This document shows positions 14,545-56,879 of a stretch of DNA of 64,000 nt, piece after piece. How positions within the stretch are numbered: the first letter of the stretch is position 1; every line of letters starts with the position of its first letter. The notes under the pieces were generated by a model. That model saw nothing but the letters and a program-made list of their open reading frames with translations. It was not told the origin of the DNA and searched no databases. The stretch spans positions 3,584,001 to 3,648,000 of the forward strand of contig CBDCJO010000002.1 in the NCBI GenBank assembly GCA_965217865.1. Direction: 5' to 3'. This DNA is from Candidatus Latescibacterota bacterium. GTDB taxonomy: Bacteria; Latescibacterota; UBA2968; SICM01. The position numbers and the translations under genes are program-made.

Positions 14545-15246
14545 ATGTTTTCCAGGATGATGCAACGAATGAGCATGGGGGCCCTTGCCCTCCTATTTCT
14601 AGCCGGAACCGGCTACGCAGAGACTTTCCAGATCGATCCTGTACACTCCTCGGTCGGATTCTCCGTCCGGCATATCTTCAGCCGGGTTCCGGGAACGTTC
14701 ACCAATTTTTCCGGGTCTGTCGTATACGATTCCGATCACCCGGAAAATTCATCCGTTAATGCAATCATTCAGGCCGCCAGCGTGAATACCGAAAACGGGA
14801 GGCGCGACAATCATCTCCGCAGCCCGGATTTCTTCGACGTGGAAAAATTTCCGGAGATCACCTTCACGAGCACAGCTGTGAAACAGGAAGAAGATCGGTT
14901 GATGGTCACTGGAGACCTGACGATGCACGGGGTCACCAAAAGCGTGGAGATGCCCGTGGAGGTCCTGGGTGTCGGCCCACATCCTATGTCGAAGGCAACG
15001 GTAGCCGGCTTTGCCGCCGACCTGAAGATAAAAAGGTCGGACTTCGGCGTCAACAGCTGGACGGATCCTGCCGGGGTCGTGGGGGATGAGGTCCGAATTG
15101 TCCTGAATATCGAAGCCGCCGGAAAGGCTATGTCGAATCCGTGTAACCCCTGCAATCCGTGCAACCCGTGCGGGGAAGCCAAGAACCCATGCAATCCATG
15201 CGGGGACAAGGAGATGACGAACCCGTGCAACCCATGCGGGAATTAA
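14545..15246 (+). CDS. YceI family periplasmic protein with Asn-Pro-Cys repeat tail
   Basis: RBS GGAGG; signal peptide; IDPVHSSVGFSVRH, RDNHLRSPDFFDV, GDLTMHGVTK; eight NPC units at the C-terminus. Confidence 0.92.
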   Translation: MFSRMMQRMSMGALALLFLAGTGYAETFQIDPVHSSVGFSVRHIFSRVPGTFTNFSGSVVYDSDHPENSSVNAIIQAASVNTENGRRDNHLRSPDFFDVEKFPEITFTSTAVKQEEDRLMVTGDLTMHGVTKSVEMPVEVLGVGPHPMSKATVAGFAADLKIKRSDFGVNSWTDPAGVVGDEVRIVLNIEAAGKAMSNPCNPCNPCNPCGEAKNPCNPCGDKEMTNPCNPCGN

Positions 15247-15249
15247 AAC

Positions 15250-15470
15250 CCGTGGATCGTTGTTCGTGATTCGGGGATCGGAAAAGCCGTGATTCGTGGA
15301 TCGTGACTCGTGACTCGGAAAACATGTCGATCGTGGTTCGAGACTCATAAAGAGGGAAATTAAAATCGTATACCGAAAAAGATGAGCGATAACTGCTTGT
15401 GCGAATCACGGATCACGAACGACGAATCACGAGAACCGTGGATCGTGACTCGGGGATCGGAAAGCCCGGT
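15250..15470. repeat. Composite heptamer-arm element, type A copy 1
   Basis: GTGGATC/GTGATTC/GTGACTC arm, core GAGACTCATA...AAAAAGATGAGCGAT, inverted GAATCAC/GGATCAC arm. Confidence 0.8.
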
Positions 15471-15585: not shown

Positions 15586-17441
15586 TTGCGTTTGATCAAA
15601 TCCACAATCATTATGATAATCTCTCTTTATACGGTCAGCGCAGCCGGGACGCTGGATTGGGATGTTGTAGATGTCGACACGGGAGGGAAACCGGCTCTCG
15701 CTGTCAGCTCTAAGGGAATCCCTCACATAAGCTATATGACGGAAGCCATCATGGGTTTTGTCAAGCACGCCATCCGGAACAATGATGGATGGGATATCCA
15801 GACCGTGGCCACGGGCTATTTTTATGGCCCTCTTGCCCTTGCTATGGACTCTCGGGACCGGCCTCATATCGTGTATCACGATCACCAGGATCTGACGGGT
15901 CAGTTCAGCCCCGAGCTTGGAGATCAGGTACACGCCTTCTGGAATGGCTTCGAGTGGGCATTGGCGACCGTTGTCCACCCGGGGCACGACGGATGGGACA
16001 ACTCCATAGTGATAGACGGGACCACACCCAAAACCGCCTCGATTGATCCCCGCCAGTTCGGGAGCTCAGCCGGTGTGGAGTTCTGGGATGGTCAGAGTGT
16101 CGAAGGGGTTGGGAGCGGAGCAATCGATTACGAATTCGCGACATCGATCGCGATTGATCAACAAGGTGGCGCTCACATCTCCTACCGGGATTTTTCGAGG
16201 GCCTCCCGGAGGACGAACCAGCTCAAGCACGCAACCAAGGAAGACGACACGTGGGTCATCACTACGGTCGATCCCCAGGAGGGTTCCGGAGCCTATTCGT
16301 CCATCCGGATCGCTCCGGATGGAAATCCCGGAATCAGTTATTACGTCCGGGAGGCACAGAGCTCGGGAATCATCCGTTACGCCAAATTCAACGGCCTGAC
16401 CTGGGATATCCAGGATGTGGAGCGTGTGGGTAATGTGATCGCCGGCTTCATCGGCGCCCGGAACCTTACATCCCTGGCTTACGGCGAGGATGGCAACCCT
16501 CAAATCAGCTATTCCACAATGTTTAATCTAAGGTATGCCACCTGGGACGGGTCCAGGTGGAAGGTTGTAACCGTAGTGGAAAGCCCTTCTTCAGGGATGG
16601 CTCTTGGCGGGCTTTCATCCCATCAGATCGGACCCGATAGTACGGTGCACATCGCCTTCTATGAAATTCCGTCCGGCTTAACCACCTCGACGGGAACTGT
16701 CAAGTATGCTCGAGGCACGCTTTCCAACCTGGCGCCTGAATTTTCGAATCTGACGGACGAGGAAATCGCAGAAGGGGGCATGCTCAGGATTCCGGTTCAG
16801 GCCACAGATCCGGATGAAGACACGGTCACGTTCACCGCGACAGGCCTCCCGGAGGGGGCTACATTTGAAGAGGGGGAGATTGTCTGGTCCCCCGGGTTTG
16901 ATCAGGCAGGAATATATCGAATTTCATTGACTGCCAGCGACGGGTCTATTAGTACAGAGGGGGAGATTACGATCACGGTAGAGGAAGCAAATGCACCGGT
17001 CCGCTTCTCCTCGGTCTCACCGTCCGTGGCGATTGTGGTGGGGGAGACGGGATCGTTGCAGACCTTTGAGATCGTCACCTCTGACCCGGACAATGATCCC
17101 CTGAGCATCTCATGGACGGCCAACGGGAAGGAGATCATCGGGAGTCAGGTTCCACCCTCACCTTCACCGCAACCGATGCGGAGGAAGATTTGATTTCGGT
17201 AACGGTCTCGGACGGAACAGAGACCATCACACAGTCCTGGCGGATCGCAAGGATCCTGAGAGGGGACTTTGACGAAAACAACAGGGTCGACCTAGATGAT
17301 TTCTTTCTGTTCGCAGGTGCGTTTTCACAGGAGGGGACCGGAGAAAATGCCCGGTTCGATCTGGACGGAAATCAGACTATCGATTTCGAAGACTTTTTTA
17401 TATTCGCCATCTGGTTCGGGGTAAGAGCCGTGGATAGTTGA
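15586..17441 (+). CDS. Secreted beta-propeller-like protein with Ig-like domains and EF-hand/dockerin-like tail; frameshift near 17150
   Basis: Repeated PHISY/LKYA-type motifs; LAPEF...ATDPD..GLPEGA Ig domain; ORF 17112..17441 supplies GDFDENNRVDLDDFFLFA. Confidence 0.75.
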
Positions 17442-17640
17442 TCGTGATTCGTGACTCGGAAAACAGTCGATCGAGGGTCGAGACTCATACAAGAAGAAAT
17501 TCAAGATCGTATAAGGAAAAAGATGAGCGATCAATGTTTGCGCGAATCACGGATCACGAACGACGAATCTCGATAAAAACCCGTGGATCGTGATTCGTAA
17601 CTCGGGGATCGGAAAGGCCGTCGATCGTGGATCGGGAGAA
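17428..17640. repeat. Composite heptamer-arm element, type A copy 2
   Basis: Core and right arm closely match copy 1 (GAGACTCATA...AAAAAGATGAGCGAT...GCGAATCACGGATCACGAACGACGAATC). Confidence 0.8.
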
Positions 17641-17748
17641 TAGTGAAATGAGTCTGGATGGCATCGCTTGCCTGTGAAGGATGTTAGGACATGAGTCGAG
17701 AGTCAGCTTGTTCGCTTCTAGCCCTTCCCCCAACCCTTCCCTCGAGTT

Positions 17749-17797
17749 CGCACTTTTTCTTGCTCGTCCCAAGAAAAAGTGCGCAAAAAGAAAGACG
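17749..17797 (+). repeat. 14-bp hairpin with possible H-type pseudoknot
   Basis: CGCACTTTTTCTTG / CAAGAAAAAGTGCG; loop CGTC can pair with GACG after an A-rich linker. Confidence 0.5.
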
Positions 17798-18004
17798 CTG
17801 CTCAAACGCCGCGGAGGCTGGGCGCGCCTAAGCCCGGACTGTAGATGACATTCAGGATTTTGTGTGGTTCCGAGAGGGATCGTGGCATAACCGGGCCCTG
17901 GTGGAACGTTAAAAAGGAGGGACAGAGTCGCGCCCAAAAACCGATAATATGATTCAGGTACTGAGAGTACAGTTTGACTTTAGTAACAGTTCACCAAAAT
18001 ATAA

Positions 18005-19661
18005 TTGAAGGCGAAAATGGACGAATCACGAATCACGCGAATCATAAAAATGACCAGAACGACAAGCATCATTATCGTCTGCCTCCTGGTGTCCGGCCAG
18101 GATCTCCCGGTGAGTGCGTCTTCTGAACCGTTCGAGTTGTTCAACCTGAAAGACCAGGAGACCAAGTCCATCTGGAATATCAAGGGAGAGGCGGTCAGCG
18201 GACCACTGAAGGGACAGAGGATGAAGCAGATCCCGGCGCATAACGCGATGTGGTTCGCCTGGCTGGCATTCTGGGGAAACACTCAGGTTCACGGCGAAAC
18301 CGGGAGGGGGAACGGCGAGACATTCGAGAATGTGAATCAATTTCCGAGTGGACAGATCGTGTCCGGAGGGGTGCCTCGGGATGGGATCCCGGCGCTCACG
18401 GACCCTAAGATGTTGGCCTCCTTCGAGGCAAGGATATCAGATTCCGATCTGGTCTTCGGGGTGGTGATGAACGGAGAAGCCCGGGCTTATCCCCACGCGA
18501 TCGGCTGGTGGCACGAGATCGTCAACGACAGGGTTGGGGGGCATCCGGTGGTCGTGACTTTCTGTCCCCTGACGGGGACCGGTCTGGTCTTCGACGGAGA
18601 TGGTGGAGAAGGATCGAAGCGGGTCGAGTTGGGGGTGTCGGGTTTGCTGTTCAACACGAATCTGATCATGTATGATCGCAGAGATGGCGATACCCTGTAT
18701 CCGCAGATGATCTTCAAGCCGATCAACAACAATGAAGTACCGGAGTTGAAGCTTTTGCCTGTGATCGAGGCTACCTGGGGTCTGTGGAAACAGCTCTATC
18801 CGAACACGCTCGTGGTCAGCGATGAGACGGGTTTTCCCCGAAACTATGAAGCGTATCCCTATGGTGCTTACCGAGAAAGCAGCCAGGTTTTCTTCCCGCT
18901 GGCGCAGGATGAGAACAACCTGTCGCGCCTCCACCATCCGAAAGAGAGGGTCCTTGGGATCCGTGGAGAATCCGGAACCCCCAGGGCCTATCCGTTTGCA
19001 GCCATGGGGGGAGACCAGGCGGCGATCAACGATACCCTCGACGGTAAGCCAATCCTGGTGGTCTATTATGGAGAGGGCCGGTTGGCCATTCCCTACAGCC
19101 GGGAGGTGGGGGGGCAGACCCTGACCTTTGAGATCGCCGGACCCAATCTCCCTCCGGAATTTTCTAGCTTGACGGATCCGGAGGTTGCTGAAGGCGGCAT
19201 GCTCAGGTTCCCGGTTCAGGCCACGGACCCGGATGGAGACCCGGTCACGGTAACGGCGTTGGGTCTCCCGGAGGGGGCCACCTTTGAAGACGGTGAGGTT
19301 GTCTGGACCCCGGGGTTTGACCGGGCAGGGGTTTACCGGATCACCTTCACGGCCAGCGACGGGTCCCGCATTTATTTTCACGGCAACGGATGCGGAATCG
19401 GATGTCGTTTCGGTTGAGGTATCAGATGGAACGGAGACGATCGAACACAGGTGGCGGATCGCGAGGGCCCTGAGGGGGGACTTCGATGACAATGGAATTG
19501 TCGATTTGATTGATTTCTTTCTTTTTGCGAGTGCGTTTGGACAGGATGGGGTTGGGGAACTTGCCCGGTTCAATCTGGATGAAAATCCGGAGATCAATTT
19601 TTTCGATTTTTTTATATTCGCCAGCTGGTTCGGGGTGAAAACCGGGGATCGTGATTCGTGA
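18005..19661 (+). CDS. DUF3179 protein (circularly permuted) with Ig and EF-hand/dockerin-like tail; frame break near 19365
   Basis: SGGVPRDGIPAL, ARAYP, HEIVND, TFCPLTGTG, SGLLFNTNLIMYDR; tail in ORF 19284..19661. Confidence 0.8.
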
Positions 19662-19764
19662 TTCGGGGATCGGAGAAGCCGTGGATAGTGGATCGTGATT
19701 CGTGACTCGGAAAGCAGATTGAGGTTTTCAATCCGAAGTCAACTAATCGGAATTCCGCGATGCT

Positions 19765-19938
19765 CCCTCACCCCGCCTCGCAAAGCTCGGCACCCCTCTC
19801 CCGGATGCCGGGAGAGGGGGAGATCGAAATGATCTGATTGTTTAATGAAGAGAAAAGCGAGATTCTTAATATATCCGAAATGAATGTCATCGTCCCCTTC
19901 TCCTGCTAAGCGGGAGAAGGGGATACAGGGGATGAGGG
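19765..19938. repeat. Inverted pair of CCCTCACCCC..CCCCTCTCCC-type REP-like palindromes
   Basis: CCCCTCTCCCGG-ATG-CCGGGAGAGGGG and CCCCTTCTCCTG...CGGGAGAAGGGG...GGGGATGAGGG. Confidence 0.65.
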
Positions 19939-20024
19939 CGTTGAACTATAATCCGAACTGGCGAAAAAACCCCTGACGATTACGCAGCACCATAAAGAAC
20001 GTGAAGCGTACGGTGGACCGGAAA

Positions 20025-20160
20025 AGCCGTGGATCTTGATTCATGGATCGGAAAGGTCGTATTCTATCGATAAAAAGATTTGAATATTCCTCAAATAATC
20101 ACATCGATTATTTACGAATCACGAATCACGAATCACGAATCACGAATCACGAATCACGAA
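20025..20160. repeat. Composite heptamer-arm element, type B, (GAATCAC)6
   Basis: GCCGTGGATC arm, core TATCGATAAAAA...TTCCTCAAAT..CATCGATT, perfect repeats 20116-20157. Confidence 0.85.
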
Positions 20161-33498: not shown

Positions 33499-33649
33499 CA
33501 AAGGCCGTGGATCGTCGTTCGTGGATCGTGATTCGTCCCCCCCCCCCCCCCGGGAGCCGTGGATCGCAGCCTAAATAGCAACCCTGGACAGAACCAGTAA
33601 ATCACTAAATAGGTCAAAAAAACGGCGGGCTAAAAAGGACGCCGTTTTC

Positions 33650-54265: not shown

Positions 54266-54269
54266 TCTG

Positions 54270-54518
54270 AATCGTGGTCCGTGGATCGGAAAAGCCGGGG
54301 TCCGTGGATCGTGACTCGGAAAAAACCGAATCCTATCGATAAAAATCCTTTGCCGTTCCTCCAATTATTCGCATCGATTCTTAACGAATCACGAATCACG
54401 AATCACGAATCACGAATCACGAATCACGAATCACGAATCACGAATCACGAATCACGAATCACGAATCACGAATCACGAATCACGAATCACGAATCACGAA
54501 TCACGAATCACGAATCAC
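54270..54518. repeat. Composite heptamer-arm element, type B, (GAATCAC)19
   Basis: GTGGATC arm, type-B core, perfect repeats 54386-54518. Confidence 0.9.
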
Positions 54519-54532
54519 GGGGGGGAAATCGA

Positions 54533-55328
54533 ATGAACGCATACCAGGTCTCAACCTATATCGGCTCCGATGCCTTGACCTTGTTTCAGAAACGGGGTTA
54601 TCATATCCACGGCCGGTTGTTCTCGCCCGAGGAGATCGACGCCCTCACGGCCGCCTGTGAAGGTGTATGCCAGGGGACTTATGAAACGGGCAGGCCTCCC
54701 GACAGCATCTAACGAGACCATTTTCAAGGCGGTCACCAGCGAAAGGCTCGGGCACGTGGCCGCACAACTCCTGGGAGCCCCTTCCATACGGCTCTGGCAC
54801 GACCAGCTCAGCTACAAACCCGGAAATGGGGGGAAGGTGATCACCTGGCACCAGGACTGGATGTACTGGCAGATGATCTCAGAACCCAAGACCATCACCT
54901 GTTGGATCGCTCTGGATGACGTCGAACCTGAATCCGGGCCGATGATCTACCTGGAGGGCAGCCACAAACTGGGACTCCAGCCCAAGCCGTCCGGGATCAG
55001 CGGAGACGACCCTCAGAAACCGGTTATGCCCGACGGATCGGCACTTAAGGAGGTGCCGATCCTGATTCAATCGGGCCAGGTCGTGTTCCATCACGGCCTG
55101 ATGCTTCACGGGAGCCATAAAAACTGGAGTCTGAAGGCAAGACGTGCCATGGTCTCCCACGTCATGTCCGGCGAATGCACCTACCGGTATGTCGGTCGAC
55201 ATATCTGCGAGAAGATGATGGAGACTTATTCAGAACATCCCGGTCCGGGGGAACCCTTCAGGGGGCCCCAATTCCCGCAGATGTGGCCCGTGTCAATTGG
55301 GGATTGTGGAATGCGGATTGCGGGTTGA
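54533..55328 (+). CDS. Phytanoyl-CoA dioxygenase family protein; broken near 54710
   Basis: FQKRGY N-terminus in one frame; WHDQL, WHQD, WIALDD, HHGLMLHGS in another. Confidence 0.8.
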
Positions 55329-55471
55329 AGATCTGGAAATGGATTCCTGCTACAACCTCTCGCTGGATCTTGAATCCCGGAATCAAAAGCGCCTTCGTCG
55401 ATCCGTTCATCGATTGACGAAGGCGCTTTTTTAATCCAAAACCGGATTGGACCGGACCGAAAGCGGACACC

Positions 55472-56213
55472 TTACCGGATTTTTGCTGCAAAGGAATTGG
55501 GGCCAGGCTCCCTTCCCTCAAGGAAGTAGGGGAACGGGTTTACCCAACGACCGTCTCGTTTTATGCCGTAATGGAGATGCGGCGCCGTCACCCTTCCGGT
55601 TCTGCCCAGGTACCCGATGATCTGACCCCGTTTGACCCGATCCCCACGTCTCACGGAAAATCTCTGAAGGTGCGCGTAGACGGACTCAAGTCCATATTTG
55701 TGATCGATGAGGATATAGTTTCCGAAATTACCGTCTTTTCGACGCACTGAGACTTTTCCGTCCGCTGTGGCAATCACAGGTGTCCCGATTCTGTTGCAGA
55801 TGTCGACCCCGCGGTGCATATGGAGGGCGCCGGTGAAGGGATCCCGGCGGCGGCCGAATCGGGATGAGATCCACGAGTCTGGGCGAGGTACCGGAGATAT
55901 CGATGGGGTATGGTTTCGGATTATCGATATCATTCTCCAGCACATCGCCGATCTCATAGAAACTGCCCTTTAACCGTCTGGCTTCTTGAAGAAGGTGGTC
56001 CATGTCCAGGCGTGCCCGGTGAATCCCCGGGGTGGGGGGACTCTCCGGGATCGGATGCACGACAATAGAGGCCCTGGGTTGGAGGTTGGCCATCTGGAGC
56101 AGCTTATCTTCGCTTGAAACGAGGTACTTCATCTCCTCACGTAAATCGGCCAGTTCTGTAGCCAGATCTTCCAAACGCCCGGACAAAACCCGATTTTCGA
56201 TTTCGAGCATCAC
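55472..56213 (-). CDS. M23 family peptidase; frameshifted, start uncertain
   Basis: ISSRFG.R.DPF, HRGVD, YAHL, TAPHLHY; coiled N-terminal part in ORF 55728..56213. Confidence 0.82.
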
Positions 56214-56507
56214 GAACCGGGTAATCCAGATCGGGGGATATCAGGCAAATGGTCCCAATCCATATTCGACCCAATCCACTAAACCGCATAGGCCTCCTAT
56301 AGCATGCTGAACTAACGGAGGGGAAAGCCGGAGGGGGGATTGAACGGCGATATCGTAATTGGGGAGAAAAGGGACGATCGAGGAAGGTCCCGGCCAGCCG
56401 GGGTTGTTTTTGATTATAAATCAGTGTTTAAACAAATCGTTATATAATATATATGATCATTCCGCTTTCAAGTCAAGTATTTATCTGCTCTGAAACCAGG
56501 ACGGAAT

Positions 56508-56875
56508 AGCCGGGGATCGTGGTTCGTGGATCGGAAAAGCCGTGGATCGTGGTTCGTGGATCGGGGATCGGGAAAGCCGTGGATCGTGGTTTGTTTGATC
56601 GGGGTTCGGAAAAGCCACTAATCTGAATCCATTCAAAAACCTTTGACTATTCCTCAAAAAATTCGCATCGATTTTTAACGAATCACGAATCACGAATCAC
56701 GAATCACGAATCACGAATCACGAATCACGAATCACGAATCACGAATCACGAATCACGAATCACGAATCACGAATCACGAATCACGAATCACGAATCACGA
56801 ATCACGAATCACGAATCACGAATCACGAATCACGAATCACGAATCACGAATCACGAATCACGAATCACGAATCAC
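56508..56875. repeat. Composite heptamer-arm element, type B, (GAATCAC)28
   Basis: Long GTGGATC/GTGGTTC arm, type-B core, perfect repeats 56680-56875. Confidence 0.9.
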
Positions 56876-56879
56876 GGAC

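Follow-up and report, generated by a model that had tools for sequence, protein, structure and literature searches.

The closest known system to the repeat family described here is the hmw repeat of Haemophilus influenzae. The (ATCTTTC)n arrays of hmw1A and hmw2A have 11–63 units, their first base is the mapped transcription start, and they vary only with a functional promoter and in the original orientation of the repeat (PMC12721329). In its account of these loci, this 2025 paper shows the transcription dependence of repeat change, not its mechanism. Intergenic heptamers of 2–26 units, arranged in inverted pairs and differing in length between genomes, are described from Xanthomonas (GGGAATC) and Nostoc (Rehm et al., 2015; PMC4692102). 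The BrickBuilt MITE of Porphyromonas gingivalis occurs in ∼ 19 intergenic, lineage-restricted copies, which have conserved parts, act as promoters and contain a tandem repeat (PMC4596501). In Bacillus subtilis, indels arise near replication–transcription collision sites, regulatory regions included (Sankar et al., 2016, as cited in the review PMC7451550).

The window, by which we mean the whole 64,000-nt stretch of DNA that was analysed (C2:3584001-3648000 of a MAG of 6.43 Mb in two contigs, with 96% completeness and 9.3% contamination), carries three copies of a cassette composed of a degenerate heptamer arm, a 35-bp core and a pure tail, which in the genome ranges from 1 to 38 units. The family belongs broadly to the intergenic heptamer repeats, but differs in core, length and polarity. 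With hmw it shares a pure heptamer array of highly variable length, which starts at the mapped +1 in hmw and here would start at a +1 predicted from promoter geometry. As presented in PMC12721329, however, hmw comprises two host-selected loci for tuning a single adhesin, forms part of the leader of the tuned gene and has its pairing partner downstream in the same RNA, whereas here 31 dispersed copies follow the replichore, a convergent gene ends opposite 15/32 tails and the complementary arm precedes the core and the predicted +1. The repeats of Rehm et al. are likewise 7-nt, intergenic and often in inverted pairs, but they mostly have four units, with quadruplex-forming G-tracts and no leading/lagging preference, and what PMC4692102 says of their structure includes no common core; our unit has no GGG, 27/32 loci point with the inferred fork and the copies share a core. 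BrickBuilt, as outlined in PMC4596501, holds a 23-nt unit between leader and tail, whereas here the unit is 7 nt, one arm expands and our search found no target duplication. Similar promoter-like sequences next to unrelated genes have also been reported as putative mobile promoters (PMC3575422); for our copies promoter activity is predicted only, and both an expanding tail and fork polarity are seen, which do not figure in that paper's description. The collision-site duplications of B. subtilis, as related in PMC7451550, are single events in a reporter gene, while here natural arrays appear to have grown repeatedly.

The original prediction, made from the letters of the window, had recognized three copies of one design (left arm, core, pure right arm) that all point the same way, and our analysis bears this out. 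All three tails are 100% matches to ACGAATC, the aligned cores have a mean column identity of 86%, and the 47 overlapping (GAATCAC)3 matches in the window all lie on the + strand, compared with 0 in 100 shuffles. Translation likewise agrees with the stop-free ESRITNH reading predicted for the GAATCAC strand (frame 1); with a 7-base unit, the other frames give the same cycle. The proposed complementarity of left arm and tail holds in part: the left-arm units are mostly GTGGATC, GTGACTC and GGGGATC, which complement the tail only partially. What had been overlooked is the promoter geometry of the core, the start of the tail at the predicted +1 and a shared orientation that follows the replichore (see below). 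Folding gave a good RNA structure for the copy at 56500 (z −4.7) and a poor DNA structure for that at 54268 (z +0.6), and there was no Rfam match in the window. The flanking genes are ordinary (S8 peptidase, broken PhyH, UDP-glucose dehydrogenase family), and the tail of copy 3 ends 4 nt from the stop of the last of these, which is convergent. The PhyH-family gene (54533-55328), directly 3′ of the 19-unit tail, has a stop at 54710-54712 and a frame change; no confident gene was called in 55472-56400, where one tested frame had no Pfam match. Elsewhere in the window a left arm is followed directly by a run of 15 C (33506-33551), and 17700-17940 and 19750-19960 hold other multi-copy intergenic palindromic repeats that are deep in public runs.

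Coordinates of the three cassette copies and two control arrays in the window
Feature	Position	Strand	Basis or remark
Copy 1, left arm and diverged core; -35-like TTGAAT at 20080-20085	20011..20113	+	
Copy 1, pure (ACGAATC) tail, 6.7 units	20114..20160	+	≥ 30 nt of pure repeat in X1, X3 and X7, from flank-contig starts
Copy 2, degenerate left heptamer arm; GTGGATC/GTGACTC units separated by GGAAAAGCC	54272..54322	+	sequence, family table
Copy 2, core; A-tract, -35-like TTGCCG (54350-54355), CATCGA at -10 position (54372-54377)	54323..54383	+	sequence; putative promoter role from geometry
Copy 2, pure (ACGAATC) tail, 19.4 units, from predicted +1; ends 14 nt 5′ of the ATG of the broken PhyH gene	54384..54519	+	
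Copy 3, degenerate left heptamer arm	56490..56616	+	sequence
Copy 3, core; A-tract, -35 TTGACT (56643-56648, 9.3 bits), 17-bp spacer, CATCGA (56666-56671, -3.5 bits)	56617..56677	+	
Copy 3, pure (ACGAATC) tail, 28.4 units; starts 35 nt past first T of -35 box	56678..56876	+	
Control, same arms with a different stuffer lacking promoter geometry; right arm degenerate, unexpanded	15245..15432	+	second copy ~17430-17570
Control, 2.4-unit array 19 nt past a TATAAT box (~+12), unexpanded	18021..18037	+	

A profile search of the genome with the core gave 34 matches at E ≤ 5, three of which were discarded as noise; the core thus recurs at 31 loci, and these together with one coreless long tail make up the 32 loci analysed. 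The genome holds 22 (GAATCAC)≥3 arrays, with a mean of 19.4 and a maximum of 38.7 units, and the distribution of tail lengths is two-peaked. Near-identical cores carry very different tails (1.4 versus 28.6 units; 1.6 versus 28.4 and 32.6; 19.4 versus 31.6), and since the cores have diverged but the tails are flawless, the tails must be younger than the cores. Nearly all loci are intergenic, often filling the whole gap between two genes. The 200-nt downstream flanks are single-copy at 26/32 loci, and the similar promoter-like cores (31) adjoin non-homologous genes. In our home-made gene set (5,593 genes) the gene that follows runs the same way as the tail at 17 loci and is convergent at 15; the median tail is 16.7 units facing a convergent gene versus 5.4 when co-oriented, a difference that is not significant.

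The arms are imperfect inverted arrays of variable length, and the left one is absent in some copies. Other heptamer mosaics are strewn through the genome, and in two genomes of the same family these arms, with 3–8 units, enclose unrelated stuffers. A general hairpin-spacer family is therefore present, in which the cassette is one stuffer specific to this lineage. Its tails probably arose as a by-product of mutation rather than as switches for the next gene. A leader-peptide switch was rejected, since by eye the core has no conserved start codon with a ribosome site and 15/32 tails have no sense gene behind them. A platform for GANTC or GATC methylation was also rejected, neither word being over-represented (ratios 0.97 and 0.98). 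The same heptamer hairpin also occurs inside histidine-kinase genes, at L004:940-1060 (G000:C2 near 3991027), where the reading frame of the ATPase domain is kept, and, similar in appearance, at L014 and L044 of G001.

Public runs, the library types of which are not on record, were examined as 31-mer contigs (Logan). For the stretch with the 6.7-unit copy, the repeat bin had mean depths of 3204, 5438 and 4699 in runs X1, X3 and X7, compared with single-copy depths of ∼ 8, 21–30 and 22–26. On the most cautious assumption, pure 31-mers stand at least about 276–347 (X1), 153 (X3) and 167 (X7) times above single copy, against 334 times predicted from the assembly; X1 is possibly the source sample, and part of the depth may come from other organisms. 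Flank contigs start with 29–30 nt of tail in the same three runs; X6 barely covers the stretch. At a locus with one unit, X2 bridges the same short tail, the X7 contig departs from the reference exactly where a pure tail of at least 28 nt would make it do so, and a low-depth X13 contig has a different heptamer mosaic. Strains may vary at this site, with 1 unit in G000 and X2 and, judged from the contig break, at least 4 in X7. The genome is a two-contig MAG, which might raise the suspicion of a sequencing or consensus artefact, and short or degenerate arms in the reads would have spoken against the original prediction. Instead, pure 31-mers reach at least 150 times single copy in three runs of three studies, flank contigs begin in the tail and the short tail is bridged identically in X2, which makes such an artefact scarcely credible. 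Assembly error does not account for the long tails.

On the basis of the home-made gene set, the sigma70 promoters of this genome have the form TTGACA-17-TATATT with an upstream A/T tract; TAnnnT is found in 31% of 981 sites at spacer 17 and in 4–6% at spacers 16 or 18. Scored with a matrix trained on the first 1,500 upstream regions without the unit (221 sites), most cores have a -35 region of 5–11 bits and keep the -11 A, with CATCGA at -10, which is poor (−3.5 bits). The core would therefore be a candidate sigma70 promoter by geometry, with a strong -35 and a poor -10; transcription from it is predicted only. The pure run starts 34–35 nt past the best -35 box, i.e. at the expected +1, at 22/32 loci, and for 17 of the 21 tails with at least 5 units. 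A fixed offset is trivial within one family, so the independent cases carry the weight. The coreless 12-unit tail at C1:339817 begins 35 nt into an unrelated promoter (TTGTTC-17-TATCTT), counted in the same way, and arrays of two other units, with 5.3 and 4.0 copies, have offsets of 40 and 31 from promoters scoring 16.7 bits. Outside the family, 3/14 arrays with at least 4 units start at a strong promoter versus 7/915 two-unit arrays (P = 3e-4), and all three point with the inferred fork. Promoter score has no significant relation to tail length (rho 0.12–0.22), seven arrays at good promoters are still at two units, and three with-fork copies stay at 1.3–1.4 units, one despite a strong -35. 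No stand-alone CarD was found in the genome, and a count of alternative-sigma motifs gave no clear peak.

Fork direction was assigned from dnaA (C2:2.24 Mb) and the skew flip near 5.42 Mb, giving two replichores of ∼ 3.2 Mb each if C1 is read by its own skew. On this map, drawn from patchy skew in one 9.3%-contaminated MAG, 27/32 loci (P = 1e-4) and 26/31 cores point with the fork, or 28/32 loci if local skew is used instead; since the elements are related copies, the P values overstate the significance. The with-fork share is 52% for genes and 31/57 for other arm clusters (P = 0.005 versus the 27/32 of the family). Tails of at least 10 units are found at 16/27 with-fork loci versus 0/5 against-fork loci (two-sided P = 0.04); the latter have 1.6–9.4 units, and the one with 9.4 lies ∼ 50 kb from the inferred terminus. 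These data suggest that orientation follows the fork, as estimated from dnaA and skew, regardless of the neighbouring genes. A motif search found no dif-like site. GC skew runs opposite to the dnaA-based replichores in C2 at ∼ 0.8-1.05, 1.35-1.75 and 2.3-2.9 Mb; these blocks are recent inversions or assembly mis-joins.

Several loci bear on what triggers growth. Core-linked GAATCAC arrays reach at least 6 units in 18/26 cases, whereas 12 of the 13 arrays without a core have 2.3–2.6 units (the 13th is C1:339817), and 48 further seeds, half in each orientation, have stayed short. The unit itself is thus not the trigger. Nor is mere length, as only 2/968 other heptamer arrays in the genome reach 6 units; 67 others with 3 to < 5 units have not run away. 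Since the tail at C2:5077429 has grown without a left arm, the hairpin is not the trigger either. The core at C2:4522806 leads into (GCACCAC)17, beyond which GAACCACG is intact, from which it follows that the core-proximal unit was amplified there. GCACCAC is in tandem nowhere else in the genome, nor in the left arm of this locus, which argues against an external template and for local growth. At C2:776851 a 37-nt duplication has its breakpoints at −21 and +16 relative to the junction, and where an IS200-type element splits the core the tail has just 2.3 units. Together these observations support the original view of a dispersed, non-coding element with polar growth from a fixed point by local slippage.

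Judging from these sequence patterns, we favour, at roughly 55%, a model in which tails grow by slip-back anchored at the transcription start, the likeliest trigger being a co-directional encounter of fork and RNA polymerase. RNA polymerase would bind the strong -35 and A-tract and linger because the -10 is poor; a co-directional fork would then stall or reprime within about the first 16 nt past +1, and the new 3′ end could re-anneal 7 nt back via the ACG overlap, adding a unit beside the core. The resulting 7-nt loop would escape MutS, which is known to handle only loops of a few bases. Loss of mismatch repair was rejected as the cause, the MutS frames being intact. The poor -10, the failure to find a stand-alone CarD, the absence of a link between score and length, the good cores that are unexpanded and the ease with which promoter complexes are dislodged, according to the review PMC13296718, speak against this model. 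Within one genome the family offers the unit with and without the core, copies in either orientation, a mutant unit and a broken core, so that the variables can be separated; two of them, position at +1 and fork direction, stand out as testable. If correct, slip-back at the transcription start would explain the origin of some hypervariable heptamer loci and provide a small cassette for measuring fork–polymerase encounters.

Plain replication slippage would dispense with transcription: the A/T-rich core, a bound protein or an arm–tail hairpin stalls the polymerase in one orientation, and arrays beyond 3 units run away. The two-peaked tail lengths, the poor -10 and a promoter score that does not track length would all fit, and promoterless long pure heptamer arrays are common across phyla. 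Xanthomonas arrays extend to 26 units in the genomes covered by PMC4692102. We nevertheless regard plain slippage as rather unlikely, given the 67 arrays that have not run away, growth without the left arm (C2:5077429) or without the core (C1:339817) and the same offset at unrelated promoters. Less likely still is an RNA-mediated change as proposed for hmw, in which the repeat transcript, as a fold cut by RNase III or as an RNA–DNA hybrid, primes or templates repair at its own locus. According to the hmw experiments reported in PMC12721329, variation there needs promoter, hairpin and RNase III, and the inverted repeat is static. Our genome has an RNase III gene, one copy folds strongly as a read-through RNA, and a local RNA would also account for the mutant unit. 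The pairing arm, however, lies upstream of the predicted +1 and would be absent from the core's own transcript, loci without an arm have expanded too, and a fork bias is not predicted.

A non-autonomous single-strand mobile element, inserted by a Y1/HUH enzyme with replichore bias and gaining units on repair of a nick at the junction, might be suspected from the strong orientation bias, the near-identical cores at distant sites and the 19 Y1 transposase matches in the genome; replication-linked orientation is known for IS200/IS605. We think this improbable: none of the 19 Y1 loci is bordered by family arms, one Y1 element is inserted into a core, no clean empty site was found (no paralogous one in the genome, and in X13 a different heptamer mosaic at the single site compared), and tails at unrelated promoters would go unexplained. 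Telomerase-like addition by a reverse transcriptase with an external RNA template had been raised as a speculation by the original prediction and would suit pure tails with a fixed start in a genome with three reverse transcriptase genes. These genes (PF00078 search, which a very divergent enzyme could escape) lie 12–49 kb away from any element and are not flanked by arms, the unit that grows differs from promoter to promoter, and the GCACCAC unit was amplified at one locus without a tandem copy elsewhere. The idea is thus unsupported and, in our estimation, very improbable.

How the cassette spreads is a separate matter. Shared words at the boundaries of 26 loci average 2.81 nt versus 2.89 nt when shuffled, so that no target-site duplication is evident, with left boundaries that are uncertain. 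No reverse transcriptase, Y1 or four-helix-bundle gene flanked by the same arms was found in the genome. A four-helix-bundle (GxxExxY) cassette was rejected: the 5 TIGR02436 matches, at 4 places, lie 18–70 kb from elements and none is arm-flanked, PF13366 had 0 matches, and our literature search on four-helix-bundle repeats returned nothing relevant. Since neither target duplication nor a linked Y1 transposase or reverse transcriptase was found, and with the replaced mosaic of X13, recombination between the many heptamer arms is the likely route of spread; on its own, recombination would leave the biased orientation of the copies unexplained. The IS200-type Y1 element inserted mid-core lies at G000:C2:5252641-5253302 (L075) and has ∼ 13 near-identical copies in the genome. 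One reverse transcriptase gene (L001:1012-2935) has a long helical C-terminal part in a second, overlapping frame, and L002 and L003 are two near-identical copies of another.

Transcription starts might act more generally as a repeat-expansion engine that is independent of the unit, any heptamer at the +1 of a fork-co-directional sigma70 promoter being iterated, possibly with nascent RNA as primer. We put this forward tentatively and consider it possible rather than probable. If true, a mutational process would operate across phyla, with hmw as a single instance under selection and the present genome as a natural experiment with 32 loci; such a rule was not found stated in our literature search, most subscription journals lying outside it. 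Among relatives, TTGAC plus tail was found in 1/168 genomes of the phylum, the window's own, arm units only in 3/40 and (GAATCAC)4 in 1/60, bearing in mind that short-read assemblies can lose such arrays. The exact core-end pattern had 0 matches in metagenomes, and a viral scan gave 2 uninformative ones. In 80 of > 118 GTDB loci (L149 and L022 show the same locus and were counted once), 8/18 promoter sites at pure arrays, at 7 loci, fall within offsets 29–42, compared with 7% expected; a single locus, with a repeat that itself resembles a promoter, accounts for 7 of the 18 sites. A sigma70 promoter is absent at 47/54 long pure arrays, and its presence at pure versus mosaic loci (7/54 versus 0/26, P = 0.09) does not differ significantly. 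With 7/54, a promoter would be one route to long arrays, not the sole one.

A metagenome scan that asked only for TTGAC 34–35 nt before 2.4 units returned 14 loci with unrelated upstream sequences, although two pairs of matches look orthologous. At least 4 units (4–15) are present in 12/14, and nAnnnT at spacer 16–17 in 8/14. A long array offers several in-phase matches, yet the TTGAC box is aligned to the first unit in 11/12 informative arrays (2.9 expected, P = 2e-6); this control covers offsets < 34, where the array would itself break the promoter. Variant units showed no clear distal push (3 versus 2 of 13). The apparently orthologous promoters L220 and L223, from two metagenomes, have 13.7 and 6.7 units at the predicted +1. 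L222 has a 5.7-unit array at its predicted +1, and its promoter spacer holds a palindrome that resembles a LexA box.
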